Shown: positions 1,471 to 21,079, counted from the stretch's first letter. The stretch: 64,000 nt of DNA from Candidatus Omnitrophota bacterium (GCA_022711115.1 JAKLFP010000004.1:112648-176647); one strand, 5' to 3'. Program-made: numbers and translations. The notes: generated by a model from the letters alone, not told the origin.

Positions 1471-1544
1471 AAGGTTTTTTTTGTTTCAAAAAGCCCCGTT
1501 CGTGATGACAGACCCGTTTTAAGTTAAGCATTTAATTTTTTAAA

Positions 1545-2765
1545 CTACGGAAAAAAAGTTCCATGCAAAATAAGATAAATGACGCAAATATTCGGGACAA
1601 TATAAGTTGCGAGTGTAAAAAGCGTGATATTTTCCGGATCCTTTTGTTTGAAAAGAATAAAAAAAGCCAAGGGAATGAAAAGATACCGGATTTCGATGAC
1701 CGGGAGCGGAAGTAAAAACAAGATCGAGAACGGATACAAAAGGTAATAGGATTTGCGTTGCAACGGGGTGACGCAAAGCGAAAGCACCGAATAAACGATA
1801 GGGATGAATGCCGCGGCCTTAACAAGTATGGACGGTGAAGTCATCCAGAAAATAAACCAGTTATGCAGAAAACGGGCAAATCCGTTGTAGTAATGGGTTG
1901 ATTGGAAAAAGAAAAAATAAATCATGGTGATTTCGATTAAAATAAGCCAGAGCATGATACTGCGTTTTAAATGGGATATGATCTTAAAGAAATTCGAAAG
2001 ATTTAAAGGCAGAAAAAGGAAAAAGAAAATAAAAAGCGCCAGAAATATATTGCCGCCATTGAAAGTTACATAATGATATTTTCGGTCTCCGAGAATAAAA
2101 CCCTTATTCCAGATAACGAACGCGATCATCAAGGCCGCTGCAAGAAAGAAAAAAAAGAACTTGGGCATCCATCGTTTGATGTCTTGCCAACGGTATTGCG
2201 GGTAATAATTCTGGAAGTAAGCAAGCCATCCGATAAAAGCAAGCCAGATAATATTATTTTGGCGGACCATGAGGCTGAGAATGCCGAAGATGCCGGAAAG
2301 CCAAAGACGTTGATTGAGCGCAGCCCCTAGGGCTAGAAAAACATAAAACATGGCGTAAATATCCGTATAGATCACAAAAAAGAACGGAAAGAAAACAGGG
2401 GATAAAAGAAACAATAAGGATTTTTGGATGGAGGAGCGAGCATCGATCTTTTTTGCCAGCATAAAGAAAGCCAGGACGCAAAGAAAAGAAAGGGCTGTGC
2501 TTAAAAAACGGATACTGTCACCATGATCACTGCGGATCAACCAGCTTAAAATGGCCGTTGACCAATGGTAGCCGGGCAAGTAAGGACAGCGGCTGGGGAA
2601 GAAATTTTTACCTTCAAGGATCTCCATGATCTGCATGTGATGGCAGTATTCATCGGCGAGGTGAAGCATGTTTTTTACCGCAAGGTAACCACCGGTAAAA
2701 ACAACGAAAGCAAAAACGAAAAAGGCAACGGTTTTGTAGGTCTCTTTTTTTTCTATGGGCATCAT
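1545..2765 (-). CDS. ALG10/DIE2-family GT-C membrane glycosyltransferase, paralog B (tandem to A)
   Basis: 406 aa, roughly 55-60% identical to paralog A by eye. Same motif set: ADEYCH, CPYLPGYHW, YTDIYAMFYVFLAL, RQNNIIWLAF, NKGFILGDRKYH, EIRYLFIPL. Confidence 0.6.
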   Translation of the reverse strand: MMPIEKKETYKTVAFFVFAFVVFTGGYLAVKNMLHLADEYCHHMQIMEILEGKNFFPSRCPYLPGYHWSTAILSWLIRSDHGDSIRFLSTALSFLCVLAFFMLAKKIDARSSIQKSLLFLLSPVFFPFFFVIYTDIYAMFYVFLALGAALNQRLWLSGIFGILSLMVRQNNIIWLAFIGWLAYFQNYYPQYRWQDIKRWMPKFFFFFLAAALMIAFVIWNKGFILGDRKYHYVTFNGGNIFLALFIFFFLFLPLNLSNFFKIISHLKRSIMLWLILIEITMIYFFFFQSTHYYNGFARFLHNWFIFWMTSPSILVKAAAFIPIVYSVLSLCVTPLQRKSYYLLYPFSILFLLPLPVIEIRYLFIPLAFFILFKQKDPENITLFTLATYIVPNICVIYLILHGTFFP

Positions 2766-3231
2766 TTTTGTTCTATCAGAAGAGACTTTCGGGACGATGG
2801 GTAAGTAATGTTCAAAGTTTTATCAGAAATTCGTGTAAAACAACAAATCCATTATTCAATTTTAGAATCGTATAAAATCTTTTGAAAGATTTTATCCGTC
2901 TTTAGTGAATATGTCCACAAAATCACAGTTCGAATGAATAGGATTTCGGAAAAGGGCGTTTCAATTTTAAAACCTTTGTGACATAATAAACTTCGTAAAA
3001 TTTGATTCCACCCGGCGGAAAAATGAACGTCATTGTAAAACGTCATTGTAAAATCATGAGGTCTTTTGCTGAAACGGGAATTTGAATGCGTCCAGCTAAA
3101 GATCGAGAGGTCGAAGGCGCATAAGTCGATCTCGTTAGTGCGCGATTCTCATCGATCATGGAATGGGGAGCTCCGAAAAATATGAATCTTACCTTAAAGC
3201 CTTGTCCGCGACTGTCTCCACGATACAGGCA

Positions 3232-3663
3232 ATGAATCGATTTTATTGGAAAAAAATAATTTTCAGGACTTTTCTCGGGGTCATTCTTAATGTTGTTTTT
3301 ATCTTGATAGACCATAACAGCGCTTTCCCTGCCGAAGATGTCTCCGGACTCATCGCTCAAGGTGAAACGTTTCTGGCTCAAGGAGATTTTAAGCAAACTT
3401 GGGCGGTGGCGAAAAAAATTCTGACTGAGGACCCCCAAAATTTAACCGGTTATCGTCTTGCCTTGATTTATTTCATCAACATCGGAAACGAAACAGGTTT
3501 TTATAAAATGATCAGAGAAGCAAAAAAACATGGCGTTTCAGATCTGGCGATCGATGAAATTGCCTTGCAGCTCTTATTTTTGGCGGATCAACAGCAGCAA
3601 GCCTATTACAGATTATATGAGTATGAAATGAAGTGGCGTGAAACTTATGATCCCGCTTATTAA
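3232..3663 (+). CDS. small membrane-anchored TPR-like protein
   Basis: In-frame ATG at 3232 followed by a hydrophobic anchor (FRTFLGVILNVVFILI) and a TPR-like helical region. Overlaps the start of the downstream membrane protein gene. Confidence 0.35.
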   Translation: MNRFYWKKIIFRTFLGVILNVVFILIDHNSAFPAEDVSGLIAQGETFLAQGDFKQTWAVAKKILTEDPQNLTGYRLALIYFINIGNETGFYKMIREAKKHGVSDLAIDEIALQLLFLADQQQQAYYRLYEYEMKWRETYDPAY

Positions 3664-5395
3664 AAGATCTTTTTTTCGTACGCCGCTTGCCGTTTACACC
3701 CTGGCTGTGACTTTTATTTTTGTCTTGGGTTTTTTTATTCATTATGGGCGGGAAGCCCGTCATTCAAAATCTTGGCAGTATGTGATGTCGGACGACCAAC
3801 TGGTCTACTGGAGTATTGCCAAGGGCAGAATGATGTCGCCCCGCTGTGATGGAAATCCTTATTATTACGAAGAGCAGGGCACTCGGAATATCATCCCTTT
3901 TACTACGGCTGAAGTCATAGGGCTCGTCTCTAAATATACAAAAATCCCTCTCGAGTGGTTTTTCCCATTATGGCAAATTCTCATGCCGCTTTTTGTTTGG
4001 TTTGTTATTGCCGTTTGTTGCTGGAAATTATGGAACTATCCTCTCAGTGTCAGTGCCGCAGCAGCCTTGCTCCTTCTTCTGGGCACCCTATTCTGTCCCT
4101 GGCCGGGTATCCACACGACCTTGTTCAGGTTTTCAAGACCTCTGGATGGAATCGCGCCCATTTTTTTGTGGATCTCTCTGATCTATAAGGGAGATCCGGG
4201 CAATAAAAAACATCATATCGCGATCATCATGACAGCGGCCTTAACGTTATGGTTACAACCTTTTTATGCTGTTTTCTGTTTATGGATCACGGTTTTTGAA
4301 TACATGAGTTCCATCGCCCAAAGGGGAGGTTTTTTAAAACATCGGCTTTATTTCCATGCCTTGGGAAGCAGTCTTGTTTCCGGACTTATTTTTGCGGACT
4401 ATGCCTTTCATGGTAAAAATATCACGGCCGCGTATTTGCCCACAAGGGATGCCCCGGGAGGTGCGCCCCTTTTTTGCCTTCTCATGACGCTCCTCATGTT
4501 GATCGTCGTTGTATCCGTTGTGATTTTCTTTTATGTTTGCTTGAAAAAGGAAGTCTCGCCGCTCGATCGTTTGATGACCGCATGGACTTTTTTTGGAGTT
4601 CTGATTTACGCAACGTTAAAACCGCTATCGGAATTAACCATCCATATGCTGTACTTTGCGCCTGTCATGATATTGTCTTCAGCTGGGTGGATTCATGAAA
4701 AAATTTCTATATTAAAAGGAACGCGCTATTTTTCTTTTTTTAGCCGTGCGGTTGTTATTCTTTCGGTTTTTTTTCTTGCGGCGGCATTGATTTCCAAGAA
4801 AAACTTTTTCAGTCTAGAGAGTCGCCACTATTTTGTTTATATCCCACAATATTTTTTCATCATGCTCTTTTCTTTTTGGCTTTCCGCAAGGTTCCATCTT
4901 ATAAAAACGTGGGTGATGCAGAAAAAAACTGTTTGCGGCATCATACTTCTGCTTGCCGTGGCGGGATTTTGGAAAATGCCCCTGTCTCTTTGGAATCGTG
5001 ATTTTTCCTTTGGCGGGGGATACCAGTGGCTTAAAGCACATGCGCAGCAAAACGATGTCGTTCTGACGGCGTCATTTAAATGCATGTACAGCGAATATCT
5101 GTTTTATAAAACAGGATTGAAGTCCTATTTTACCGATCATGGACAAGCATCTGAATTTCGAAGAACCCCGAAGGCTTTTCGGATCAATTTTGTCAATGGG
5201 TTGTTATTGGGTTTGTTGGATCACATGCCCCATTATGGCAGTTTACCGCTTGCCCAAAAGCTCCGCTTTTTCAAGCTGGACTATGTGTTAATTCCCAAAC
5301 CAAGTCCTTTTCTTGAGGAGGTCACGACCCAGCTGAAGGGGCATCTACAGGAAGTTTATCAGGATCAGAAATGTCTGCTGTGGAAAGTTATCTGA
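3638..5395 (+). CDS. large polytopic membrane protein with a C-terminal soluble domain, possibly GT-C-like, family unassigned
   Basis: 585 aa: about 400 aa with many TM helices, then about 150 aa hydrophilic C-terminus. SDDQ in the first loop. The true start may be the ATG at 3647. Confidence 0.55.
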   Translation: MKLMIPLIKRSFFRTPLAVYTLAVTFIFVLGFFIHYGREARHSKSWQYVMSDDQLVYWSIAKGRMMSPRCDGNPYYYEEQGTRNIIPFTTAEVIGLVSKYTKIPLEWFFPLWQILMPLFVWFVIAVCCWKLWNYPLSVSAAAALLLLLGTLFCPWPGIHTTLFRFSRPLDGIAPIFLWISLIYKGDPGNKKHHIAIIMTAALTLWLQPFYAVFCLWITVFEYMSSIAQRGGFLKHRLYFHALGSSLVSGLIFADYAFHGKNITAAYLPTRDAPGGAPLFCLLMTLLMLIVVVSVVIFFYVCLKKEVSPLDRLMTAWTFFGVLIYATLKPLSELTIHMLYFAPVMILSSAGWIHEKISILKGTRYFSFFSRAVVILSVFFLAAALISKKNFFSLESRHYFVYIPQYFFIMLFSFWLSARFHLIKTWVMQKKTVCGIILLLAVAGFWKMPLSLWNRDFSFGGGYQWLKAHAQQNDVVLTASFKCMYSEYLFYKTGLKSYFTDHGQASEFRRTPKAFRINFVNGLLLGLLDHMPHYGSLPLAQKLRFFKLDYVLIPKPSPFLEEVTTQLKGHLQEVYQDQKCLLWKVI

Positions 5396-5517
5396 GGGGA
5401 GGATTTCCTGCAGGAAGCTTTTTGATAAGGCGTTTTTAATTTAACAAGGATCCGGATTATTTTATGCGGCATGACTTTTAGATATGATTAGTAGTGTAAA
5501 AATCTTTTTATCACAGA

Positions 5518-6645
5518 GTGTCAACCAAGGTTTTGCTCTTTATGGGAAATAAAAAGATACTTTTCCTCTCGTTTTCACGTAGTCCATGGATTTTGTTTTT
5601 CAAATATCTTGTTTTTTCCATCCTCCCGTTTGTGCTTTTGTTATTTGTCAGCGAAGTGGTCCTGCGGGTTTTAAATTTTAGATATTCCGATACACCTCTG
5701 GTCATCCAGTCCCAGCCTGAAACGACCTCGGTTCTGAATTTTTCCCGGTATTTCAAAGAAAATCCGGACAGTACTTTTGTAAAAGACAAACTCCTTTTTT
5801 GGACCCAGAGGCCTTATTGGGAAGATCAGTATGTTTTGGAGAAGCCTCGCGGGATCACGCGCATCATGACTCTCGGATGTTCCTGCACGCATGGGTGTGA
5901 CAATATGAAAAATTCTTATCCCAATTACATGGATGAAATTCTTGAAATACAATTCCCTGACAGTTATCAGGTCATTAACGCCGGCGCCAGCGGCTATTCT
6001 TCCTATCAGGGATTGCAGGTGCTCAGGCATGTGATCCTGAAGTATCAACCCGAGATCGTGACTATTTTTTTTGGATGGAATGACCATTGGTTTGCAAGCA
6101 AGCCCGATCATTTGGTGCGCGTGAAAGAGGATTGGGAGGTCAGTCTGATTAATTTTCTGGAAAAATGCAGAACTTATCAGGCTTACCACTGGATGATCGC
6201 TCAATTGAAAGAAAAAGTTTTTAAAACGACGAAAACAGGTCCCTCGCGTACCTTTCGTGTGCCGCAGGAGAAATATAAAGCTAACTTGAACGCCATGGTG
6301 GATTTTTGTCAAAGCCATAATATCAAGCCGGTATTGATGACAGCACCGTTTGATGCATCGCAGTTGGCAGGGCACGGGCCAACCTTTTTCTGTTTTAATT
6401 CTTATGAAGATCTGGTGAAAACCCATATGGCTTATAACCATATTGTGCGGGAAGTAGGCGCGTCTCGGCAGGTTCCGGTGATCGATCTCGAAAGGGTGTT
6501 TTTTCAACTAGAAAAGAAACAATCGGCGCCCTATTTTACGGACGGCATTCATTTATCCTCCGTGGGTTGCCCGCTCGCGGCAAGTTTCATCGTTGAAAAA
6601 CTGAGGGAATTTGCTCTTCTCAAAGATCCTCCCGTCAAAAATTAA
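5518..6645 (+). CDS. membrane-anchored SGNH/GDSL-family hydrolase
   Basis: N-terminal TM segment. SGNH blocks: I (RIMTLGCSCTHG), III (GWNDHW), V (DGIHLS). Confidence 0.7.
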   Translation: MSTKVLLFMGNKKILFLSFSRSPWILFFKYLVFSILPFVLLLFVSEVVLRVLNFRYSDTPLVIQSQPETTSVLNFSRYFKENPDSTFVKDKLLFWTQRPYWEDQYVLEKPRGITRIMTLGCSCTHGCDNMKNSYPNYMDEILEIQFPDSYQVINAGASGYSSYQGLQVLRHVILKYQPEIVTIFFGWNDHWFASKPDHLVRVKEDWEVSLINFLEKCRTYQAYHWMIAQLKEKVFKTTKTGPSRTFRVPQEKYKANLNAMVDFCQSHNIKPVLMTAPFDASQLAGHGPTFFCFNSYEDLVKTHMAYNHIVREVGASRQVPVIDLERVFFQLEKKQSAPYFTDGIHLSSVGCPLAASFIVEKLREFALLKDPPVKN

Positions 6646-6647
6646 AG

Positions 6648-6671
6648 GCCCTGTAATTTTTCTTTCAGGGC
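6648..6671. terminator. weak hairpin between convergent genes
   Basis: GCCCTG-12 nt-CAGGGC directly after the SGNH stop. No clean T-run follows. Confidence 0.25.
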
Positions 6672-6759
6672 TACTTGATTCCGGGTCTATCCACCATTTT
6701 TGTCACTGCATCGCGCTCTTTTTCTGACAGAAAGAATACTGGATTTCTCCGGTTGATCT

Positions 6760-8055
6760 TTAAGGGAAAAAACGGAGTGCCATCGGGGTTGACAAAGCTG
6801 CGATCAAACAACCCGTCAGTGTGAGGTTGGTAGCCAGGGTCGCAAGCGTTATTTCTTCGGAAGGAGGTTCCATAAAGAGGATGAAAAAAGCGATGGGAAT
6901 AAAAAGATAGCGGGGTTCGATGACGACGATCGGGGACAGAAACAAAAACGTAAACGGATAAAGGAGATAAAAAGATCTTCGTTCTAAGCGTGTGACGCAA
7001 AGGGAAAGGAGACTATAACCTATCGGTAAAAAGGTGAGCATTTTGCTCCAGAGGGCAGGGTTCCTCATCCACTCGAGGAGCCAGTTGTGGAGAAAACGCT
7101 GGAACCAGCTTTGCACAGTGTTGTAAAGGTGATTGGCTTTAAAACAAAAAAGATATAATAAAAAAGTCACGATCAAAATGGGAATGATCCATCGGTTCCG
7201 TTTCAAGAGCGCGAGGATTTTGGGGGCGTTAAAAAGATTTTGAGGAAGAAAAAGAAAAAAGAAAAGAAAAAGCAATAAAAAAAAGTTATCGAGTGAAAAA
7301 CCTAGCGGGTGATGAGCTTTGTCGCCGAGGATGAATCCTTTATTCCAGATCACAAAGACTGCGACTAAAAACAGGGCGAAAAAGAAGAAGAAAAATTTTG
7401 AGATCCATTGCCTGACGTCTTTCCACTTGTACTGCGGGTAGTAATCTTCAATATAGACAAGTGCGACGATAAATCCAAGCCAAAAGATATTATTTTGTCG
7501 GATCATGAGGCTGAGAATGCCGAAGAAACCGGAAAGCCACAGGCGCCGTTTGATCGCGAATAAAAGAGCCAGGAAAAGATACATCAGGGAATAGATGTCT
7601 GTATAAATCAAAAAGAAATAGGGAACAAAAAGCGGCGAGAAAAGAAAAAAAGTGGCTTTTGCCGCGGTGGAATTTCTATCCAGGGTTTTTACGAGAAAAA
7701 AATAGACGACAAAACTAGCAAATGAAAGGATCGTGGATAAAAGCCGTAGCATGGTCGGAAAGAAGTATAGAGCCACGGGCGAAGCAAGCGGTAAAAGCTC
7801 AGTCGATCCCGGTCCCCTGAAATGAGTCAGCCAATATAAAAGAGCCACGGTCCAGTGATAGCCCGGTAAATAGGGGCAGAGTTTTGGGAAACGATCAGTG
7901 CCATCCAGAATTCCGAGGATCATCCGACTGTGGCAGGGCTCGTCGGCAATAGCTGGTAGGAGTTTGAAAAATAAAAAAAAGCAGGACATAAAAATAACCA
8001 GTGCTGAAAAAAGGAAAAGAAAATCCGGGGAAAGGCCTTTAGCTTTTGGTAACAT
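6760..8055 (-). CDS. ALG10/DIE2-family GT-C membrane glycosyltransferase, paralog C (more divergent)
   Basis: 431 aa. Motifs ADEPCH, CPYLPGYHW, YTDIYSLMYLFLAL, RQNNIFWLGF, NKGFILGDKAHH, EPRYLFIPIAFF. Confidence 0.6.
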   Translation of the reverse strand: MLPKAKGLSPDFLFLFSALVIFMSCFFLFFKLLPAIADEPCHSRMILGILDGTDRFPKLCPYLPGYHWTVALLYWLTHFRGPGSTELLPLASPVALYFFPTMLRLLSTILSFASFVVYFFLVKTLDRNSTAAKATFFLFSPLFVPYFFLIYTDIYSLMYLFLALLFAIKRRLWLSGFFGILSLMIRQNNIFWLGFIVALVYIEDYYPQYKWKDVRQWISKFFFFFFALFLVAVFVIWNKGFILGDKAHHPLGFSLDNFFLLLFLFFFLFLPQNLFNAPKILALLKRNRWIIPILIVTFLLYLFCFKANHLYNTVQSWFQRFLHNWLLEWMRNPALWSKMLTFLPIGYSLLSLCVTRLERRSFYLLYPFTFLFLSPIVVIEPRYLFIPIAFFILFMEPPSEEITLATLATNLTLTGCLIAALSTPMALRFFP

Positions 8056-9397: not shown

Positions 9398-9829
9398 GTT
9401 ACCGGACACTGTCGAGGATAACATTCACTATCGATTGAAAACAGACCTTAGAGGAAAGCCGAGAAATCAAATTGAGGCAACTCCTTGAGAGGGCTTTTTT
9501 TCAGCGTAGTTAATTTTATTCTATGGATGACATTTGAATCGAATGAATCTTCTTGAGATGTATCCCATCAAGCCGAAGATCAAAACAATACTAATATGTT
9601 TATTTTAATAAAGCTAAGCGCTTGAATAGAACAAAAAATTATAAATTGCTATAAATTATAATTTTAAAAAGTAAATGGGATAGGTTATAGTTTTAACATA
9701 AGGAAACAAAAGAAATAAAGCCATTTAAAACAGATGCGTAGAAAGGGATTCATTTTAAATTTTGGCACGAGGGTTAATTACGAGAATGATATGAAAACAA
9801 TGGGCGTTGGAAAGGAGTCTTTGATTTTT

Positions 9830-13262: not shown

Positions 13263-14252
13263 ATGAAGAATGCTTACAAAATTTTTCCTATGGTTATGTT
13301 AACACTATCACTTTTTGTCACAAATGGCTATTCCGTAGGCTCGGGTAAAGAAGAGCTAGAAAAAGTATACGATCTGCTAATTAAAGGAAAATATGATGAA
13401 GCTACTATAAAATGTACGAATCTAATCCAAGCGAATCCCAACAACGCCGAAGCATTTTTCTATCGAGGACTCTCTAATTATAAAAAGAATCAATCAGATG
13501 AGGCTGTGACTGATTTTAGCAAAGCAATAGCAATTAACCCTGCAATGGAAAAAGCCTATCTCGATCGAGGCATAATTTACAGAGAAAAAAAGAATTTTGA
13601 AAGCGCAAAAGCTGATTTTAACAAAGTTATTGAACTCGATCCCCAAAATGCTGATGCCTATGTTGAAATAGGCAACATCTTTCTTCTGGTTGAAGATTCT
13701 GCGCAAAAAGCGATAGAAAATTACACGAAAGCCATTGAGCTTAACCCCAAACCGAGTCGCATTATTGGTAATGCTTATAACGATCGTGGTCGGGCATTTG
13801 CGAAGATCGGAAACCTAAAGCAAGGACTCAAAGATTGTAACATGGCAATAGAGATTAACCCTCAAGATGCAACGACTTATGATAATCGGGGACTTATTTA
13901 TTGGGCGATGGGGGAATTAGATAAAGCTATTGCAGATTTCAATCAAGCCATCAAACTTGATGCGAAACATGCAAGGGCCTATTACCGACTCGGGCGGGTT
14001 TATGCGCAAAAATCAGATCTGGATTCTGAAATCCGATATTTGGGCAAAGCAATAGATATTAACTCCAAATATGCTAAGGCATATTATTGGCGGAGTATTG
14101 CTTACCGTCAGAAAGGATTAAGCGGACAGGCGGATGTAGATTACAAAAAAGCTGTTGAATTGGATCCTAGTTATGCCACCAAAGATAGTTATGCCAAGGG
14201 ATCCCCGCCCGCCTTTCCCGCATATACAGTTGATGATCTAGTTGCTTCTTAA
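13263..14252 (+). CDS. secreted tetratricopeptide-repeat protein
   Basis: Signal peptide, then at least 8 canonical TPR units (A..YY.RG..Y......A..D...A..L.P). AT-rich codon usage. Confidence 0.85.
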   Translation: MKNAYKIFPMVMLTLSLFVTNGYSVGSGKEELEKVYDLLIKGKYDEATIKCTNLIQANPNNAEAFFYRGLSNYKKNQSDEAVTDFSKAIAINPAMEKAYLDRGIIYREKKNFESAKADFNKVIELDPQNADAYVEIGNIFLLVEDSAQKAIENYTKAIELNPKPSRIIGNAYNDRGRAFAKIGNLKQGLKDCNMAIEINPQDATTYDNRGLIYWAMGELDKAIADFNQAIKLDAKHARAYYRLGRVYAQKSDLDSEIRYLGKAIDINSKYAKAYYWRSIAYRQKGLSGQADVDYKKAVELDPSYATKDSYAKGSPPAFPAYTVDDLVAS

Positions 14253-14506
14253 ATTCTGAAAATCGTACCACTCTCCTCGGGGGTGGACTCATGGCTTTGA
14301 GGCGGTATCGGAGCGTCAAAGGTTCGACAGGGAGAAGGCGAGGTTATTTGAAGAAAGATATTAAATATAACGCCATGAAAAAATATTCGTCCACCAGGCT
14401 CCTTCCGTAATTCCGGCATTTATTTCTGTAGATTTTTCCCTCCAATCCGTCCAGCATGACACATATTAATCATCCGCGATGAAGTTCTTAAATCAGAGGT
14501 GAACGC

Positions 14507-14764
14507 ATGAGTGAGCAAAAAACTCCTGACCCTATCATAGAGAAACTCAACGAACTCGACCATGACCTTGGTGTCTTGATATTTCATTTTTGTTCATACC
14601 AACTTGCAATGACGAAACTCTTGGCAGAAAAAGGAATTGCGCATCCTGCGGAACTTGAAAAGTTTGAGGTAGAGGCTAAGAGGGAAGTGAGACAGCGACG
14701 CGATAATGCGATATTTAAAAGAATGGTGAAAGATTTTATGCCTAAAGATACAGAGACAAAATAA
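14507..14764 (+). CDS. hypothetical protein
   Basis: 85-aa ORF with an RBS-like GAGGTG upstream. No recognizable motif. Confidence 0.35.
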   Translation: MSEQKTPDPIIEKLNELDHDLGVLIFHFCSYQLAMTKLLAEKGIAHPAELEKFEVEAKREVRQRRDNAIFKRMVKDFMPKDTETK

Positions 14765-14766
14765 AG

Positions 14767-14949
14767 ATGAGTTTCAGACAGATCATTGCAAACGTATTCG
14801 GGAAGTCTAGTGATCAAAAAGACGCGTATTTGTCGTCGAAACTGAGGGGATCCTACAGGATTCTAGGAATAAAGCCTGGCGCACCCGTCTCTGCGGTCGA
14901 AGTCGCGTATAAGGCCCCGAAACAGCGGTTGGTCGCGGATTTAGAGTAA
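14767..14949 (+). CDS. hypothetical small protein, possible J-domain-like fragment
   Basis: SYRILGIKPGAPVSAVEVAYK resembles the start of a DnaJ J-domain. The ORF stops at the edge of repeat copy A. Confidence 0.25.
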   Translation: MSFRQIIANVFGKSSDQKDAYLSSKLRGSYRILGIKPGAPVSAVEVAYKAPKQRLVADLE

Positions 14950-15050
14950 AAACGGTATCGGTTCTGAAAGTGCCGGGTTAAAGAACATAAAAAAGGCTAG
15001 CATTTTAAATCTGCTGGCCCTTTTGCGTCTGCCAGCAGGTACGTGCCACC
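14948..15050 (+). repeat. ~100-bp palindromic repeat element, copy A
   Basis: About 85% identical to 16984-17080. Contains GCTAGCA-loop-TGCTGGC followed by CCTTTTGCG (terminator-like), plus an alternative pairing CTGCTGGC...GCCAGCAG. Confidence 0.7.
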
Positions 15051-15418
15051 GAACGAATTTGAGGAAAACTGGCTGAAGTAGCAGGAAGCGCGACCGGCTT
15101 TGGAATTGGTCTAGCGGTTGTCCACATGTTAACATTGTCCACAAAGAAATAAAAAAGAACCAAAAAAGAAAGAAAAGGCTTCGAATAATCTTCTTTTTCT
15201 TTCAATTCTTTCTGTCCAGCCCCTTGGGTGCAACTCAATTAATATAGTAAATAATAGCAAATAATAACTTTCTATTGTCAAAATATATTTTAAAAGTTAC
15301 ATTTTTAATATACTTAAAAATAGTTAAGAAATGTATTTAAGAATCAGCTTTATTAAAAAATGTGAAGATAATTTGAAAAAATGGAAATAAAAATCAAATT
15401 GAAAAGGAAGATCGCAAA

Positions 15419-16495
15419 ATGAAAACGAAAAGAGAATTAATGGGTTTTTTTTTCGGTGTAGTTGCAGTAATCCTTCTGAGTGCACTCATCGTACCTGTGT
15501 CGTTTGCGGCAACTCAGCCGACGTCGACTGGCGAACAGCTTCAGCCTGAAAAGCCCATCGACACGGCGAGTCCCGACACTTCCACACAGAACACACAGCA
15601 AGCGTTGAAAGATGCCGTAAGCCAGGCCAACAGCCTTGATTTGCAGGCAACAACTCTGACGGCGCCTAGTGCGCAATCGACGACGGTCACGGAAATCTCA
15701 CCGACCGATTCAAGGCAGGTCACACTGGCCGCCGCGAACACAGTTCCAATTTATCAATTTAAATATAAAAATCCACCGATTGATGTCCTCTATCATCCCA
15801 CTCAAGATTTATTTGATAACTTTTGTCCATTGAAACTTCGGCAATTAGCAGTTTCTCCTCTATATGTGTTTGATGTAGTGAATCTTATTCTTAAAAACAT
15901 CCCACCCCCAGTAGAGATGCTTAAAGCAGCGCAAGAGATTATGGGGAACTTAATGCTTAGGCTAGAGGAAGTGATTAAGCGGGTGGAAGGCTATATAGCT
16001 CAGCAGGAGAATAATATTACTTTGTGGACAACGATGTATGATGCGGAAAAAAGTGCTGTTGCATCAGGTGGCGCTTTTACCATGGCTGATAGCGCTTGGC
16101 TTCAGAATTATAGAAATGCGATGTATGTTTCTTACCAAAATTCCCTGAATGATTTCAGTTACGGGTATAAACAAAGTACTGCCATCTTAACTGTTGATGG
16201 CAAAATGGAAATTAAACAGGATGCATGGAAAAATATGGATAATACAATAGGTAACATTTATTGGTTGCCAATGAAAAGTTATCTCGATAGCTTGGTCAGG
16301 GCGCCAGAAGCAGTAATGTTAGAGGTTCAGATACAAGGTGCTAATCACGCCTTGGATGCTGCTCGAAAGTTCTTGAAAGAGCTAACTGATTTACGCAAAA
16401 CCTATGCGAACATAATAAACGCATTGATTTATAGACAGCAAATAAAAATTGCACCAGATGCCAATGTGATAATCACACCACCAGTTGTCGAATAA
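15419..16495 (+). CDS. secreted hypothetical protein (island cargo)
   Basis: N-terminal TM/signal. S/T/Q-rich linker, then a 250-aa domain of unknown function. AT-rich. Lies between the two repeat copies. Confidence 0.55.
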   Translation: MKTKRELMGFFFGVVAVILLSALIVPVSFAATQPTSTGEQLQPEKPIDTASPDTSTQNTQQALKDAVSQANSLDLQATTLTAPSAQSTTVTEISPTDSRQVTLAAANTVPIYQFKYKNPPIDVLYHPTQDLFDNFCPLKLRQLAVSPLYVFDVVNLILKNIPPPVEMLKAAQEIMGNLMLRLEEVIKRVEGYIAQQENNITLWTTMYDAEKSAVASGGAFTMADSAWLQNYRNAMYVSYQNSLNDFSYGYKQSTAILTVDGKMEIKQDAWKNMDNTIGNIYWLPMKSYLDSLVRAPEAVMLEVQIQGANHALDAARKFLKELTDLRKTYANIINALIYRQQIKIAPDANVIITPPVVE

Positions 16496-16587
16496 TTACG
16501 CCCAGTGAACTCATGAACAGGGTTGAAATGCGATTACTGAAGCGAAGTTGATTTATAAGGCTTGTTTGAAAAAACGAGCTTTTTGTT

Positions 16588-17019
16588 TTGTTAAGTGGTC
16601 CGCTAATCATAGCTTGTAACTTGCCCCGGTTTTTTACGGATGATAAGTATTTGAGGATCGAAAAGGCTGCCGAAGGCCATCCGCTTTACCCCATGATCGT
16701 TACCGCTCGCTATACTGGGCTCCGTTTGCGGGAATTGATACACCTTGAATGGCAAGATTTTGATTGGGAAAAGAAAATTGTCCGGGTTGAGAATAAACCG
16801 CAATACGGCCACACCGTAAAGAATTATCAAGTCCGAGTAGTGCCTGTATCGGATGAATTGACGGATAAGCTACTGCCCTATATCAAGCGCGAAGGAATTT
16901 GCTTCCCGGTCTATAACACTGTGGAGAAATATTCGGGCGAAGGGTCGAAGCGGTCCATTAAGAATATTTTTGGAAAACGGTACCGGTTCTGTAATGAAAG
17001 TGCTTGGTTAAAGAAATAA
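16588..17019 (+). pseudogene. tyrosine-recombinase (phage integrase family) fragment
   Basis: TARYTGLRLRELIHLEWQDFDWEKKIVRV...RVVPVSDEL matches the integrase catalytic-core box I region. The N-terminal domain and the C-terminal HxxR...Y region are both missing. Confidence 0.5.
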
Positions 17020-17080
17020 AAAAAGCCAGCATTTTTAATCTGCTGGCCTTTTTGCGTTTGCTAGCGGGTACTTGTGTACC
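16984..17080 (+). repeat. ~100-bp palindromic repeat element, copy B
   Basis: GCCAGCA-tttttaatc-TGCTGGC-CTTTTTGCG perfect hairpin plus T-run. Overlaps the 3' end of the integrase fragment. Confidence 0.7.
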
Positions 17081-17333
17081 AATGTGCAAGTATTACGTCG
17101 TCGGAGCTTAATGTCAGCTCCGTACGGCTTCTCGCAATCATTGCCTCGAATAAAAAAGCCTGGTTTTTTGGACGGGGACTCTTATTGAAGAATTGGTAGC
17201 GTGGGCTGTACTCATGCCCTGTGGCATCAGTATCACGCCGTGAGGGCTTTGAGCCCTCTACGGCTTCAGCCCCCGACAACATCAAAAAAAAACCCGACAG
17301 GGCGGAAGCCCTATCGGGTTATGAATGAACTTA

Positions 17334-18654
17334 CTGGCACACTGTTTACACTTTATACCGGACACATAGGTTACACTTTTTTGTCTTATTTTAAAGTGCT
17401 TTTTCTAAAATGAGCCCAAACGGATCTTCTTTGGGAGCGAATTTTCCGCTGGCTTCATCGAAAAATCCAAGGTCATACTCCTTAAAAGAAACCTCCCAGA
17501 TCCCATCCTCCACTAACCGAATTCCCACGGGTTGATTCGCCAAAGCGCAGCTGATATGAATCTTTAGATTCTTTATACAGATTCTGCCACAATGGGTCAC
17601 AAGCATTGTTTTGTCGTGGCCAGGGTAGGTGATATCGGGAAGCCCTCGATAAGGGGTTTGAGATTTTTGATATAAATCGCCCGGGCATTTCATTCCAAGG
17701 GCTTGGTGCGGCCTTTCGAAATTGTACTCCTTCATAAACCGATAAAACTTTTCTTGTTGCTGCAGAAAGCCGAATGCCGGAGGCTGTGTTGCTTCCAGCT
17801 TGAGCGTTCGGTGCATTCTCTCATGCCGACCGTTTTGTTGGGGGCATCCTGGCTCGATCCTCTCGAGTTGAATCCCTAACCGGATCCACCAAACCGAAAG
17901 TTTTGTTAATCCCCAGGCCGAATTCCCGGATGCGAACGGGATCCCATGATCGCTTCGAATGGCCCCGGGAAGGCCATATTCCTTGAAGGTCTCCTCAAAT
18001 ACCCTATAAGCGGTCGTTTCTCGGGTGCTTGTAAGGGCTTCACAGTTAATTAAAAATCGGGTCGCAAAATCAGAAATCGTCAGCGGGTAGCAATAAACCT
18101 TCTTCCCTAATTTAAACTCACCTTTAAAATCAACACACCACAGGTCATTAGCCCCTTTCGGATTGGAAAGATATGTTGCCGTCGCTCGGTAGGGGGATCT
18201 TTGCCTCCGTTTCTTGACAAGATCATGCCGGTCTAATATTTCATGAACTGTGCTAACAGCGGGTAGTTTGATTTCGGGGTGGCGTTTGGAAACTAATTCG
18301 CGGATTTTAGGAGCGCCCCAGTTTGGTTTTTCCCTTTTAAAGCGAACGATCAATTGCTCGATCTCGAAGGGAAGCTGATTGGGATGCTTATGTGGAGCTC
18401 TCGATCGATCAAAAAGGGCCACCGAACCAAACTCATGGTAACGTTTCCAGAGTTTGTATCCGGTGACCCTTGACATTCCAAATTCCCGGCACAATGGCGC
18501 CATCTTTTCGCCTGACAAAAGACGGCCGATAAATTTCGTTCGTTCATCCATCACACATGTCTCCTTCCATGGCATATGCGCCCCCTTTGTTAGGTTCGAT
18601 ATGCCTGAAAGTGTAAACTATGTGCTCAGAATGAACTGTAAACCATGTGCCCGG
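17334..18654 (-). mobile_element. IS481-family-like insertion sequence (~1.3 kb) with compound terminal inverted repeats
   Basis: Left end 17334-17376 (CTGGCACACTGTTTACAC..CCGGACACATAGGTTACAC). Its reverse complement matches the right end 18611-18654 (GTGTAAACTATGTGCTCAG..TGTAAACCATGTGCCCGG). Encloses a DDE transposase gene. Confidence 0.7.
17391..18575 (-). CDS. DDE transposase (HTH + rve integrase core), IS481-like
   Basis: N-terminal HTH (FGMSRVTGYKLWKRY). DDE triad candidates WCVDFKGEF, IRSDHGIPF, NGRHERMHRTLK. Confidence 0.8.
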   Translation of the reverse strand: MPWKETCVMDERTKFIGRLLSGEKMAPLCREFGMSRVTGYKLWKRYHEFGSVALFDRSRAPHKHPNQLPFEIEQLIVRFKREKPNWGAPKIRELVSKRHPEIKLPAVSTVHEILDRHDLVKKRRQRSPYRATATYLSNPKGANDLWCVDFKGEFKLGKKVYCYPLTISDFATRFLINCEALTSTRETTAYRVFEETFKEYGLPGAIRSDHGIPFASGNSAWGLTKLSVWWIRLGIQLERIEPGCPQQNGRHERMHRTLKLEATQPPAFGFLQQQEKFYRFMKEYNFERPHQALGMKCPGDLYQKSQTPYRGLPDITYPGHDKTMLVTHCGRICIKNLKIHISCALANQPVGIRLVEDGIWEVSFKEYDLGFFDEASGKFAPKEDPFGLILEKAL

Positions 18655-18668
18655 AATTTACCGAAACG

Positions 18669-18744
18669 GGTGGGCGACGGGAATTGAACCCGCAACCCCA
18701 AGATCCACAATCTTGTGCTCTAACCAAATTGAGCTACGCCCACC
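18669..18744 (-). tRNA. tRNA-His (GTG)
   Basis: Reverse complement GGTGGGCGTAGCTCAATTTGGTTAGAGCACAAGATTGTGGATCTTGGGGTTGCGGGTTCAATTCCCGTCGCCCACC. Extra 5' G(-1) paired to discriminator C. Anticodon loop TTGTGGA. Canonical T-arm GGTTCAATTCC. Confidence 0.9.
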
Positions 18745-18983
18745 ATGATTCTCATTGATTAAAAAAGAACAAAGAAATCATGGTTGTCTTGGCTTGCCAT
18801 CATGAAAATAAAAAAAAGAGCCAGGACACCACGGTATTCTTGGAGAAAGGCATTATAGCGAAAAAAAGGTTTAAGGGAAGGAAGAAAGCAACGTCCGAAG
18901 AATGGTCCTAATTTCTCCTTCATCTAATGCTAATTGGGGCTATAATGCATCATGTATTTCAACTTTAGGCAAGGAGATCTCAT

Positions 18984-19187
18984 ATGAAAGCATTTTGGGT
19001 TGGGCTCTTGGTGCTGGTGATGGTCATTGTTCTTTCCGGGATCGGGATTCTTTTGTTGCCGCTTTTTTTGGTGCTTGGTATTTTTCTTCGTCTGGTGGTA
19101 GGTCTGTTTGTTCTTATTTTTGTGATCTGGGCGGTAGGGCAGGTCACGCTTCTTTTGATCGAATTGCTTTCGGCGAAACCCAAATAG
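18984..19187 (+). CDS. small hydrophobic membrane protein
   Basis: 67 aa, two predicted TM helices. No motif. Located in the mobile-element remnant. Confidence 0.3.
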   Translation: MKAFWVGLLVLVMVIVLSGIGILLLPLFLVLGIFLRLVVGLFVLIFVIWAVGQVTLLLIELLSAKPK

Positions 19188-19205
19188 CCAAAGAGGCCCG
19201 AGTCT

Positions 19206-19469
19206 ATGCAACGGCTTATGACAGCCAAGCAGGTCAGTGAGCTTATTGAGGTCAAACCCTCCACGATTTATCAGTGGGTGCATCTTGGGCTTATCCCTTA
19301 TGTGAAGCTCGGGAAATGTGTCCGTTTCAAAAAAGCCGAACTTTTCCGTTGGATCGATAAAAACCTCCGCAAAGAGCGTGTCTCGTTCAAATCCGTAGAA
19401 CGCACGCTTGGTAAACATCCCTCTGCGAAACAAAAAGAGATCTTTGATTTGTTCGGTAAGGAGTCTTAG
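19206..19469 (+). CDS. AlpA/excisionase-family HTH DNA-binding protein
   Basis: MTAKQVSELIEVKPSTIYQWVHLGLIPYVKLGKCVRFKKAELFRWI is the typical AlpA/Xis-like helix-turn-helix. Confidence 0.6.
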   Translation: MQRLMTAKQVSELIEVKPSTIYQWVHLGLIPYVKLGKCVRFKKAELFRWIDKNLRKERVSFKSVERTLGKHPSAKQKEIFDLFGKES

Positions 19470-19533
19470 CCGGCCAGGGAACAGGTAGTTGCTTCCAGTC
19501 GGTTAAGAGGTTTATAATAATGCCGTAAATGAA

Positions 19534-19773
19534 ATGCCGAAAACATGGTGGTTTCGGTTTGGTTTGCACCTGAGGAGGTGTGCCATGACAGAACCCCAAA
19601 GGCATAAGCTGGTTGTCAGTAGTGCGGTGACCGTGCTTGTATGCCTGATAGGTTATGTGATGATCTTCGGATTTCATTCATTCGATGCCAAGGCTTTGAT
19701 CGTGATGGCCGGTTTTTTTGGCATGGCGTGGAAGATTTCGACGATCAAGAAAAAACAAAGCCCGCTGATTTAA
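19534..19773 (+). CDS. small membrane protein
   Basis: 79-aa ORF with two hydrophobic helices. The start may be the internal Met (MTEPQ...). Confidence 0.25.
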   Translation: MPKTWWFRFGLHLRRCAMTEPQRHKLVVSSAVTVLVCLIGYVMIFGFHSFDAKALIVMAGFFGMAWKISTIKKKQSPLI

Positions 19774-19968
19774 AAAAAATTCCTCAGTGGTAGTGCTCAG
19801 ACAGAAAGTTTTTTCCAACATTATAAAGCAGTTTACTGATCCTTTCCCTTGTAAAACCCTGAGCCATTCAGTACACTACACATTCTATTCCGGCTTTAAA
19901 TTTTTTTCGAAGGAATAGTTGAGTTTAATCCCATTTTTGATTTGTAAAAATTAAGAGGTTTTAGATTT

Positions 19969-21079
19969 ATGAAAGAGGAAATTGATGCGCTGACGGACCG
20001 GTTGACGGATCTCAAGGAAAAACTCCGAGAGATAAGGGGGTACCTTTGACCTGGAGTCCTTGGAAAAAGAAATTGCGTCCATCAATCAAAAAATGGCTAG
20101 GGCTGATTTCTGGGATCGTCAGCAGGATGCCCAGGCTACGGTTGAAAGACTGAAAACTCTCAAAAAAATTGTGGATCCCTGGCATAAAGCCAATCATGCC
20201 GCCAGTGATCTTGTCGAGTTGCTCGGCATGATGGATGAACATCAGGCGGAATCCCTTGCGGAATTTCAGCAGGATGTCGCGAAGCTTGCCAGGGAAGTCG
20301 AACTTCTGGAATTCCAACGCCTTCTCTCCGATCCTTTTGATCCCAATAACGCCATCGTCAGTATTAATGCCGGAGCCGGCGGAACGGAGGCTTGTGATTG
20401 GGCCCAAATGCTTTTTCGCATGTATAGCCGATGGACGGAACAGCATGATTGCACCATGCAGATGATCGATATGATGCAGGGTGAAGAAGCAGGGATTAAG
20501 AGCGTCACCTTTTTGGTGCAGGGCAGTTATGCTTATGGTTATCTCAAGGCTGAATCCGGCGTGCACCGGCTTGTCCGCATCTCTCCTTTTGATGCGAACA
20601 AGCGCCGCCACACTTCTTTCGCTTCGGTCGATGTGATCGCGGAAGTGGATGACGTCCCCGAAATCGAAATTAAAGATGCCGATATCCGGATCGACGCGTA
20701 CCGTGCAGGAGGCGCGGGCGGGCAGCATGTGAACAAGACTTCGAGTGCGATCCGCATTACGCATCTTGCGACAGGGATTGTGACGCAGTGCCAAAATGAA
20801 AGGTCGCAATTCCAGAACAAACAAGTGGCGCTGAAAGTTTTAAAAGCCAGACTTTTTGAAAGATTGCGCCAGGAAAAGGAAGCGGCGCTTTCCACAAAAT
20901 ACGGGCCCAAAAAAAAGATCGAGTGGGGCTCTCAAATACGTTCCTATGTTTTTCATCCTTATACCATGGTCAAGGATCATCGTACCGACTATGAAACGTC
21001 GAACGGCCAGGCCGTGATGGACGGTGATTTGGACGCTTTTATTGAAACTTATTTAAAACAGAACGTGACAAAGAGTTAA
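19969..21079 (+). CDS. prfB: peptide chain release factor 2 with programmed +1 frameshift
   Basis: Frame 0 runs ATG 19969 ... AGG GGG TAC CTT TGA (stop at 20047-20049). Shifting +1 reads CTT-(T)-GAC and continues as [14 protein letters not shown] into the 20060 ORF. SD-like AGGGGG sits before the CUU UGA C slippery site, as in E. coli. GGQ motif GGQHVNKT. Confidence 0.9.

Follow-up and report, generated by a model that had tools for sequence, protein, structure and literature searches.

We analysed a 64,000-nucleotide stretch of DNA from a Candidatus Omnitrophota bacterium (GCA_022711115.1, JAKLFP010000004.1:112648-176647), referred to below as the window, in which a tRNA-His gene is followed by an insertion sequence (IS) related to the IS481 family. 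A first-pass annotation of this DNA, made from the sequence alone, had described the surroundings of the tRNA gene as an inactivated, tRNA-targeted island. We report here the anatomy of the IS, the positions of its relatives next to other tRNA genes, and the composition and conservation of the DNA on both sides of tRNA-His. The features of the tRNA gene and the IS, counted from the first nucleotide of the window, are these:

18668-18743, minus strand: tRNA-His (GTG), called by ARAGORN and by Rfam (68 bits).
17326-18662, minus strand: intact IS481-like insertion sequence of 1337 bp, its tips taken from the aligned junctions of relatives.
17391-18575, minus strand: transposase gene, 394 aa, with the Pfam domains HTH_28, HTH_32, rve and rve_3.
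18608-18662: tRNA-proximal IS end, with 18-bp sub-repeats at 18608-18625 and 18633-18650.
17326-17379: distal IS end, with 18-bp sub-repeats at 17337-17354 and 17362-17379.
18663-18665: tRNA-proximal copy of the target-site duplication GAA, 3 nt after the discriminator.
17323-17325: distal copy of the target-site duplication GAA, from the junction alignment.
17291-17320, minus strand: intrinsic terminator, a 13-pair stem followed by a T run, the strongest of the region.

The tRNA-His gene, first placed at 18669-18744 on the minus strand, was confirmed at 18668-18743 by both programs, and an Rfam scan over the whole window gave no other match. G-1 corresponds to position 18744 and the discriminator C73 to 18669; the gene does not encode CCA (it reads ...CACC-CGT). 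The transposase gene lies downstream of the tRNA and is co-directional with it. The IS had been drawn at 17334-18654. Its presence held, and its tips moved 8 bp further out, to 17326 and 18662. The description of its ends as inverted repeats, each with two 18-bp sub-repeats, was also correct; the arms, 17328-17379 and 18608-18659, are 52 nt long and 77% complementary. In each arm GCACAYWGKTTACACTTT occurs twice, at a spacing of 25 nt, and the four matches to this sequence in the window compare with 0.23 expected, a number reached in 0 of 100 shuffles. Both sub-repeats of the tRNA-proximal end are conserved across relatives, and the 18-bp sub-repeats are taken to be putative transposase-binding sites.

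Read on the tRNA strand, the tips of the IS are GGTAAATTCC... (18662) and ...AAGTTCA (17326). The distal tip reads ...GTACA in the clade (...GTTCA in the window) and the proximal tip GGTA..., with TGTAC only in the related loci L098 and L099 (such loci are designated by L and a number throughout). The duplicated triplet is TTC on the tRNA strand, and the IS tip is 6 nt after discriminator C73. The stem of the terminator at 17291-17320 starts 5 nt past the distal tip, placing the IS between tRNA-His and this terminator. Since relatives carry a hairpin terminator directly after tRNA-His, the hairpin in the window is probably the original tRNA-His terminator, now parted from its gene by the IS. 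The element looks intact: its open reading frame (ORF) is full length in comparison with all relatives, the DDE residues are those that are invariant, and both two-part ends are present. There is room for only one ORF in the 1337 bp, and only one copy of the IS is found in the 64 kb.

The transposase and neighbouring proteins are identical on the JGI metagenome contigs Ga0209507_1000193 and Ga0116241_10000089, and over 16 kb the second contig matches the window with 100% identity. Exact-protein look-ups in near-identical strains, with the transposase and three proteins described below (HTH_17, p358 and p67), did not find an empty-site allele. The pre-insertion site was therefore reconstructed rather than observed and is predicted to read ...GCCCACCCGTTTCATAACCCGATAGGGC... 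A number of independent assemblies of the same population break inside the IS or tRNA-His (L005, L173 and L004 start there, L169 and L170 end there), and L005 and L173 begin at the same base of the IS. The sample of L005 (ERZ795054) also gave an 86%-identical IS at tRNA-Pro (L087); related IS copies probably coexist in the community or in one genome.

The amino acid sequence of the transposase was compared with family profiles. The best NCBIfam match was IS481 (NF033577, E = 4e-62), with 210.3 bits against a cut-off of 224; IS3 scored 89.5 bits, and NF033594 (ISNCY/IS1202-type) scored 46.9 bits against a cut-off of 250. Because the IS481 score falls narrowly under its cut-off, the element is treated as a divergent relative of the IS481 family. 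Residues D149, D209, E252 and K259 are invariant in an alignment of 41 sequences, and K259 lies seven residues after E252, as is characteristic of the single-ORF DDE transposases of this family. The first-pass call of an IS481-like HTH-rve DDE transposase thus agrees with both the family match and the triad. In an AlphaFold model the domains follow the order helix-turn-helix (HTH), HTH, RNase-H-like DDE core and C-terminal beta-barrel (~residues 320-381); the IS481 profile covers residues 12-300, and the beta-barrel lies outside it. The best fold matches of the model are IS21 IstA, the TnsB proteins of ShCAST and Tn7, MuA and retroviral integrases. IstA, TnsB, MuA and the retroviral integrases also bind several sites per end. 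No match was found among PDB sequences, and no transposase relative was found in viral contigs.

A metagenome scan with the transposase yielded 80 loci, among which we distinguish a close subgroup (L086-L104, 19 loci, 65-86% identity) and a distant subgroup (55-60% identity). In the close subgroup, 13 of the 19 loci have a complete tRNA or transfer-messenger RNA (tmRNA) gene on the same strand, and in 12 of these 13 its 3′ end is 89-99 nt before the start of the transposase gene; the distance in the window is 93 nt. In the thirteenth, L087, it is 184 nt. The remaining loci include L094, where the tRNA is cut by the contig end, L099, which has a 26-nt 3′ fragment of tRNA-Pro, and L091, where the IS itself is disrupted. 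Wherever the close subgroup adjoins a tRNA, the IS tip is 6-8 nt past the discriminator, whether CCA is encoded or not. As a separate observation, L087 carries ~95 extra nucleotides between tRNA-Pro and the IS (268-440), ending in a duplicate of the tRNA 3′ end (CGCCCCGA), and this extra DNA looks like the attachment-site (att) scar of another element at the same tRNA.

In the distant subgroup the IS has the opposite orientation, with the tRNA on the other strand and its 3′ end facing the IS. The tRNA lies 38-57 nt after the transposase stop codon in 27 of the 46 loci with enough flanking sequence. Three further loci represent a longer variant, and in 6 of the 16 that are left, 3′ parts of tRNA or tmRNA that ARAGORN did not call can be made out by eye. 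The tip (TGTCC...) is located 9-11 nt after CCA, or 12-14 nt after the discriminator, and target-site duplications of a consistent length could not be read in this subgroup. The orientation of the IS is fixed within each subgroup. The longer variant (L115, L116, L121, L122, L129 and L139) has ~270 nt of conserved extra sequence between the transposase stop codon and the IS end, and its adjacent tRNA is ~311-338 nt from the stop codon.

The targets comprise tRNA genes for Glu, Pro, Lys, Ser, Met, His, Leu, Asn, Arg, Thr, Gly, Asp, Val and Ala as well as tmRNA. Retrieval through different proteins led to tRNA-Met at 86 nt (L174-L176) and to a truncated tRNA-Leu (L181). Among complete replicons from cultured bacteria, relatives lie at tRNA-Arg(CCG) in Sinorhizobium meliloti 1021 pSymB and Rhizobium leguminosarum pSK03, and at tRNA-Ser(CGA) in Rhizobium sp. 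Q54 and Peteryoungia. On pSymB (L183, NC_003078.1 1315327-1316415) the match ends 68 nt from the tRNA, covers residues 24-387 only and falls where the PLSDB table lists no gene; on pSK03 (L184) the transposase stop codon is 37 nt from the tRNA. The relatives at L183 and L184 are 58-59% identical to the window transposase. The same IS, 99.4% identical over 1333 bp, is found at tRNA-Met in L101 and at tmRNA in L102, which indicates that a single element can have more than one target. Of the 19 junction pairs compared (the window IS and 18 group-1 relatives), 9 show a perfect 3-bp duplication and a tenth shows one of 4 bp. The 3-bp duplication occurs in the window, L089, L090, L092, L093, L094, L096, L098 (read by eye) and L181. 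At least 8000 candidate protein clusters are related to the transposase, all with E <= 1e-20. These results showed that the adjacency of the IS to tRNA-His is a clade-wide property, most copies among the 80 metagenomic loci and the complete rhizobial replicons being at a fixed distance from the 3′ ends of tRNA or tmRNA genes or from tRNA 3′ fragments, and that the IS adjoins tRNA-His because the whole clade inserts at tRNA 3′ ends.

Some loci carry additional IS sequence. A second ~55-nt distal IS end directly follows the complete IS of L100 (~1500-1560), and in L102 (~3520-3540) the 8-nt proximal tip GGTACATT occurs 3 nt after the complete IS; such solo ends suggest repeated hits at the same tRNA site. 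On a plasmid of Rhizobium sp. Pop5 (L191, 1833-1910), a tip of the distant-subgroup type is found 10 nt after a 78-nt tRNA-like element located between rtcB and a gene annotated as 'RNA-binding protein'. With the Rfam tmRNA-type model this element gives a weak match of 17.8 bits, less than the gathering score; it resembles a tRNA mimic of the Y-RNA type.

The DNA beyond the IS was compared with that of related genomes. A scan of species-representative genomes with the prfB product gave ~30 Omnitrophota loci with protein identities of 55-88%, and in 20 related loci a minus-strand tRNA-His is located ~0.9-2.3 kb upstream of prfB. Comparison of these neighbourhoods, a check that the first-pass annotation had proposed, showed that the 3′ flank of tRNA-His differs between genomes. 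Within 10 kb of tRNA-His, no relative encodes a counterpart of any window protein between 253 and 17019, nor does the window contain the genes that lie beside tRNA-His in relatives. Metabolic genes directly adjoin tRNA-His in L008, L011 and L025; L007 and L023 have 3.7-4.9 kb of additional DNA beside it; a large serine recombinase gene abuts its 3′ end in L014, L015, L019 and L021; and in L010 an intact tyrosine integrase gene, preceded by a small Xis-like ORF, reads into it. A duplicate of the tRNA-His 3′ end was not found in L010. Different relatives carry different elements at the 3′ side of tRNA-His, which is a genuine hot spot of integration. The left boundary of the variable DNA was not found, as a comparison of 12 upstream window proteins with 33 related loci revealed no synteny.

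Further observations were made at this flank in the relatives. The serine recombinases are ~600 aa long and share 87-95% identity (L014 173-1994, L015 1-759, L019 902-2650, L021 6954-8774). Immediately after tRNA-His in L015 and L021, TTGTT(A/C)CTCCCGG(A/G)CGAACCA is doubled, the copies being ~75 nt apart. The motif GGGAATTGAAG(A/G)GAGC follows the tRNA-His terminator in L006, L007, L012, L013, L019 and L034, 45-60 nt downstream of the tRNA. Its first part is the reverse complement of the tRNA-His T-arm (CTTCAATTCCC); the motif may represent either an att-type site or a piece of tRNA in inverted orientation.

In the window, the variable flank includes the following features:

16624-16971, plus strand: tyrosine-integrase fragment within the ORF 16588-17019, from Pfam and the alignment to the L010 integrase.
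15419-16495, plus strand: orphan gene p358, 358 aa, preceded by a Shine-Dalgarno sequence and followed by a terminator; its product has a signal-peptide-like N-terminus.
14949-15045, plus strand: copy 1 of a ~100-bp direct repeat, starting at the stop codon of a 60-aa ORF (p60).
16974-17074, plus strand: copy 2 of the direct repeat, starting exactly at the end of the integrase homology.
13263-14252, plus strand: TPR protein (TPR329), with an atypically low G+C content at third codon positions (GC3) of 0.32.
14507-14764, plus strand: 85-aa ORF (p85), with an atypically low GC3 of 0.37.

The tyrosine-recombinase fragment without both ends that had been noticed at 16588-17019 was recovered by Pfam, which matched only positions 3-86 of the 172-position Phage_integrase profile, and by alignment to the intact integrase of L010 (~410 aa), to whose residues 164-282 it is 58% identical. 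Its position and orientation are the same as those of the L010 integrase. The region of the first catalytic Arg is kept, while ~160 N-terminal residues and the C-terminal part are absent. The remnant cannot be active because, besides the N-terminus, the HxxR, His/Trp and Tyr motifs are missing. The homology begins just past the p358 terminator and ends 2 bp before repeat copy 2, so that both truncations coincide with junctions to other DNA. No intact integrase is found beside the tRNA-His 3′ end in the window. A duplicate of the tRNA 3′ end, which the first-pass annotation had named as the mark of an att boundary, was sought by blastn-short with 18640-18760 against the whole 64-kb window, and only chance matches of up to 14 bp were returned; no att boundary can therefore be defined. 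The different flanks in relatives and the atypical composition are as expected of an island, and the comparison with L010 supports the view that a tyrosine-integrase element probably once occupied the tRNA-His 3′ end in this genome. What is left is an ordinary, small and dead remnant. Of the original island proposal, the integrase element at the tRNA 3′ end, the variable flank and its atypical genes stand; the island is smaller than proposed, without an att boundary, and the right side of the tRNA, as shown below, is core.

The AT-rich gene for a secreted protein without known function was present as described, with its signal-peptide-like start. The p358 product has no Pfam or NCBIfam match and gave only self-hits among 5.8 billion clustered proteins and 1.84 billion representatives. 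The spacer upstream of p358 has 33% GC, and the gene is a mosaic: codons 1-115, which encode the signal peptide and a Thr/Ser/Gln/Pro-rich linker, have a GC3 of 0.52, and the remaining 243 codons one of 0.36, which suggests that the C-terminal domain was swapped. Core genes have GC3 values of 0.49-0.59. By comparison with them, TPR329, p85 and the C-terminal two thirds of p358 are compositionally foreign, marked by low GC3, and the GC3 of p60, the integrase piece and the transposase gene is not atypical. TPR329 and p85 have no counterpart adjoining tRNA-His in relatives and possibly belong to the same accessory stretch (13263-14764), whose boundary is not defined. Elsewhere on this side of the window (253-8055), three paralogous DIE2/ALG10-family, glycosyltransferase-like membrane proteins (253-1470, 1545-2765 and 6760-8055) are clustered with a GDSL lipase-like gene.

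The two ~100-bp elements first described as palindromic do exist as a repeat pair, but they are direct repeats at breakpoints rather than palindromic elements. The copies are 83% identical with two small indels, and each holds one terminator-like hairpin, GCCAGCA-N9-TGCTGGC. Neither the window nor any fetched locus contains a further copy, and folding revealed an ordinary hairpin only. Their positions raise the idea that they are the attL and attR of a small cassette, made up of p358 and the integrase piece and independent of the element linked to the tRNA: this 2-kb segment lies exactly between them, and the edges of the repeats fall at the stop codon of p60 and at the point where the integrase homology ends. 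However, the enclosed integrase is cut off by the repeat itself, so that this can not be its natural att site. The imperfect identity with indels, the lack of other copies and the fact that each repeat is mostly a terminator-like hairpin point in the same direction, and we consider such a cassette unlikely.

The constant position of the IS with respect to so many tRNA genes leads to the question of what the transposase recognises. The transposase alone probably reads a DNA feature common to all tRNA genes, for which the T-arm box GGTTCGAATCC, ~19-25 bp away from where the IS inserts, is the leading candidate. A partner protein or a guide RNA is unlikely because the IS encodes one protein and has no long non-coding region. 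An RNA guide inside the IS was rejected for this reason and because the targets share only the tRNA core. At the rhizobial loci L186-L188, which have no acceptor-like sequence, GGTT(C/T)GA(A/G)TCC is found 23-24 nt before the tip, as in true tRNAs; L133 and L145 have an acceptor-like end only (...GCGCCA- or ...CCGCCA-like). We favour direct reading of T-arm and acceptor DNA, in which the T-arm box would be the main determinant.

The main rival to T-arm reading is that the clade targets terminator hairpins or other 3′ features of highly transcribed stable RNAs, by way of a host factor, an R-loop or a paused polymerase, rather than the tRNA sequence. The distal tip of the window IS, 5 nt from a strong terminator stem, would fit such a cue, as would the hairpins shortly after the IS in L087 and L175, the insertion of L088 beside a hairpin with no visible tRNA and the T-rich target triplets. 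However, the distance to the discriminator is constant (6-8 or 12-14 nt), while that to a hairpin varies or no hairpin is seen, and copies also adjoin short 3′ pieces of tRNA genes (L181, L185, L152 and L157), which are probably not expressed as tRNAs. A terminator- or transcription-linked cue is therefore improbable, and recognition of the T-arm remains the preferred explanation.

On the 5′ side of tRNA-His, towards prfB, the window has the following features:

18984-19773, plus strand: core block that belongs to no island, from synteny and identity in ~18 related genomes and core-like GC3.
18984-19187, plus strand: p67, a membrane protein, upstream of prfB.
19206-19469, plus strand: HTH_17 protein (Pfam HTH_17; NCBIfam TIGR01764, 'excise').
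19534-19773, plus strand: p79, a membrane protein, upstream of prfB.

By tblastn, tRNA-His, p67, HTH_17, p79, prfB and secA are found in this order in ~18 of the 20 related loci. The three proteins encoded between tRNA-His and prfB share 50-90% identity with their counterparts in relatives; for HTH_17 the identity is 77-90%, comparable to that of prfB (78-88%). The GC3 of the three genes (0.53-0.59) is the same as that of prfB and secA. These results demonstrated that p67, HTH_17 and p79 are vertically inherited core genes, and the HTH_17 product is a conserved small DNA-binding protein of this Omnitrophota lineage. The gene at 19206-19469 had been read as AlpA/excisionase-like and, together with the small membrane ORFs, as part of the island, a reading that their synteny with prfB and core-like GC3 contradict. 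Elements that integrate at tRNA 3′ ends do not insert on the tRNA 5′ side. The excisionase identity was rejected because HTH_17 is conserved, core-like and on the 5′ side of the tRNA; moreover, its score with the AlpA profile, 17.6 bits, is under the curated cut-off of 21. As this gene was the sole candidate in the window for an island-borne excisionase or AlpA regulator, none is left.

The block towards prfB shows two other peculiarities. The prfB gene (19961-21079) contains the classic programmed +1 frameshift site, AGGGGG TAC CTT TGA C, at ~20026-20045, and for this reason the ORF list splits prfB at 20060. In L026, ~9 kb separate HTH_17 and p79 (2-196 and 9462-9662), and in L023 and L025 the gap between them is ~1.2 kb, compared with 65 nt in the window; there may be a second variable spot inside the conserved block, between these two genes.

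The conservation of this block bears directly on the possibility that one decayed island spans both sides of tRNA-His (14941-19800), with the HTH gene as its AlpA-type excisionase and the IS as an incidental passenger. An integrase fragment and an HTH domain of an excisionase family are both present, and the region is AT-rich in parts. Yet the HTH gene and its two membrane-ORF neighbours are core-like and syntenic with prfB in ~18 genomes, they lie on the side of the tRNA where 3′-end-integrating elements do not insert, the AlpA match is under its threshold, and the IS follows a clade-wide rule of position; a two-sided island is accordingly very improbable. That the IS came to lie beside tRNA-His by chance, or accumulated in a tolerant variable region without target preference, is scarcely credible: it does sit at the edge of a variable region as a single copy in 64 kb, but its relatives keep the same distance from at least 14 tRNA identities and tmRNA in unrelated contigs and complete genomes, one and the same IS occupies two different targets, and random insertion within 10 bp of a tRNA 3′ end would be expected, by a rough estimate, about once in 10,000.

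We therefore consider it likely that the locus consists of three layers: a core block, a variable flank with a dead integrase remnant, and a tRNA-end-targeting IS481-like IS. In the first layer, the minus-strand tRNA-His, p67, HTH_17, p79, prfB and secA would have been inherited vertically. In the second, a tyrosine-integrase element would have integrated downstream of the tRNA-His 3′ end. Of its integrase gene the middle third is left, the 5′ part having been replaced by the orphan secreted-protein cassette and the 3′ part cut off at the ~100-bp repeat; this remnant is catalytically dead. In the third, the 1337-bp IS would then have jumped into the 8 nt that separate tRNA-His from its terminator, duplicating GAA, with its tip 6 nt past the discriminator and its transposase gene co-directional with the tRNA. 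The tRNA 3′ end, present in every bacterium, may serve the IS as a harmless landing site, and in this subgroup the transposase gene could be transcribed by read-through from the tRNA promoter.

Several findings weigh against this interpretation or parts of it. Every near-identical strain that reaches the tRNA 3′ flank, from at least 5 samples, has the same arrangement. The island remnant has neither att repeats nor a defined left end, and the p67-HTH_17 pair is absent from at least L008 and L020, which we read as loss. No more than about half of the junction pairs show a perfect 3-bp duplication, which is also short and T-rich, and the AlphaFold model is of moderate confidence (pLDDT 67.8). 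No recognisable tRNA sequence is found at L088, L097 and L103 in the close subgroup or at L136 and L162. Some fragment sites keep the acceptor end only and others the T-box only, which points to different candidates for the recognised feature, and tRNA fragments beside the IS may post-date its insertion, as at the orthologous loci L098 and L099. A broader proposal is that a very large and widespread clade of single-protein IS481-like elements recognises tRNA, tmRNA and tRNA-like genes directly, probably via the T-arm box and with no accessory protein or guide, a mode undescribed for any IS, and that the precise and oriented insertion 6-8 bp after the discriminator (12-14 bp in the sister subgroup) is part of this recognition. 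We regard this broader proposal as evenly poised between right and wrong.

The IS shares with the IS481 family a DDE transposase that is encoded in one ORF without a frameshift and has HTH domains at its N-terminus, a length of ~1.3 kb and terminal inverted repeats, and one of its tips fits TG...CA. It differs in the extra ~90-aa C-terminal beta-barrel of its transposase, in having two binding-site-like repeats per end and in the insertion of its clade at tRNA 3′ ends; IS481 itself prefers the target NCTAGN. Its 3-bp duplication is not the typical one of 6 bp but is within the range of the family, whose members mostly produce 6-bp duplications and vary from 2 to 15 bp (PMC10045372). The IS1202 family, which nests within IS481 in phylogeny (PMC10045372), targets the conserved dif site at a fixed distance and in a fixed orientation (PMC10132070), and ISAjo2-like members are thus a precedent for this kind of precision at a conserved site. 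Unlike the window clade, which is directed to tRNA genes, IS1202 elements use dif or pdif; they are also longer, ~1.5 kb, with duplications of 5-6, 15-17 or 24-29 bp.

The prokaryotic transposons that are known to use tRNA genes are Tn7-like. These elements, directed by TnsD/TniQ or associated with type V-K or I-D CRISPR systems, have tRNA genes as safe sites and insert shortly after them in a specific orientation (PMC11406308). The window transposase resembles TnsB in fold, and both kinds of element have several transposase-binding repeats per end. In contrast to the single protein of the window IS, Tn7-like elements need TnsC and TniQ/TnsD or a guide RNA, and each uses one specific tRNA, whereas one IS of the window clade can use many tRNAs and tmRNA. 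With tyrosine-integrase islands the locus has in common an integrase that reads toward the tRNA 3′ end (as in L010), a variable flank and genes of odd composition; unlike them, the window has a dead middle fragment and neither att repeats, an island excisionase nor a far boundary. Among eukaryotic elements, the DNA transposon Dada inserts inside the RNA gene, the window IS just after it, and the retrotransposons Ty3 and TRE (the latter from Dictyostelium) depend on Pol III factors. All three elements use multicopy conserved small-RNA genes as harmless landing sites (PMC3706591); the landing-site strategy is the same as that of the window IS, with unrelated transposase families and hosts.

A search of published full text, with subscription journals and ISfinder notes outside its scope, returned only work on Tn7-like elements, integrases, Dada and retrotransposons and no tRNA-targeting IS of this kind. 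The tRNA-3′-end-targeting branch of IS481-like elements is apparently undescribed. For this window, the analysis guards against naming a conserved core regulator an excisionase and reduces the 'island' to a small dead remnant. That remnant is ordinary, and the clade of tRNA-end-targeting IS481-like elements is the interesting part of the locus. For the annotation of islands in general, an IS beside a tRNA gene is not by itself the mark of an island. Islands with an integrase and Tn7-like transposons with several proteins are the classic elements that land at tRNA genes. If the interpretation is correct, a one-gene DDE element that inserts at nearly any tRNA 3′ end would represent a third and much simpler solution, and it would help to explain why tRNA flanks break assemblies and vary between strains. 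A compact protein with built-in recognition of a universal and harmless site could also be of interest to genome engineers.

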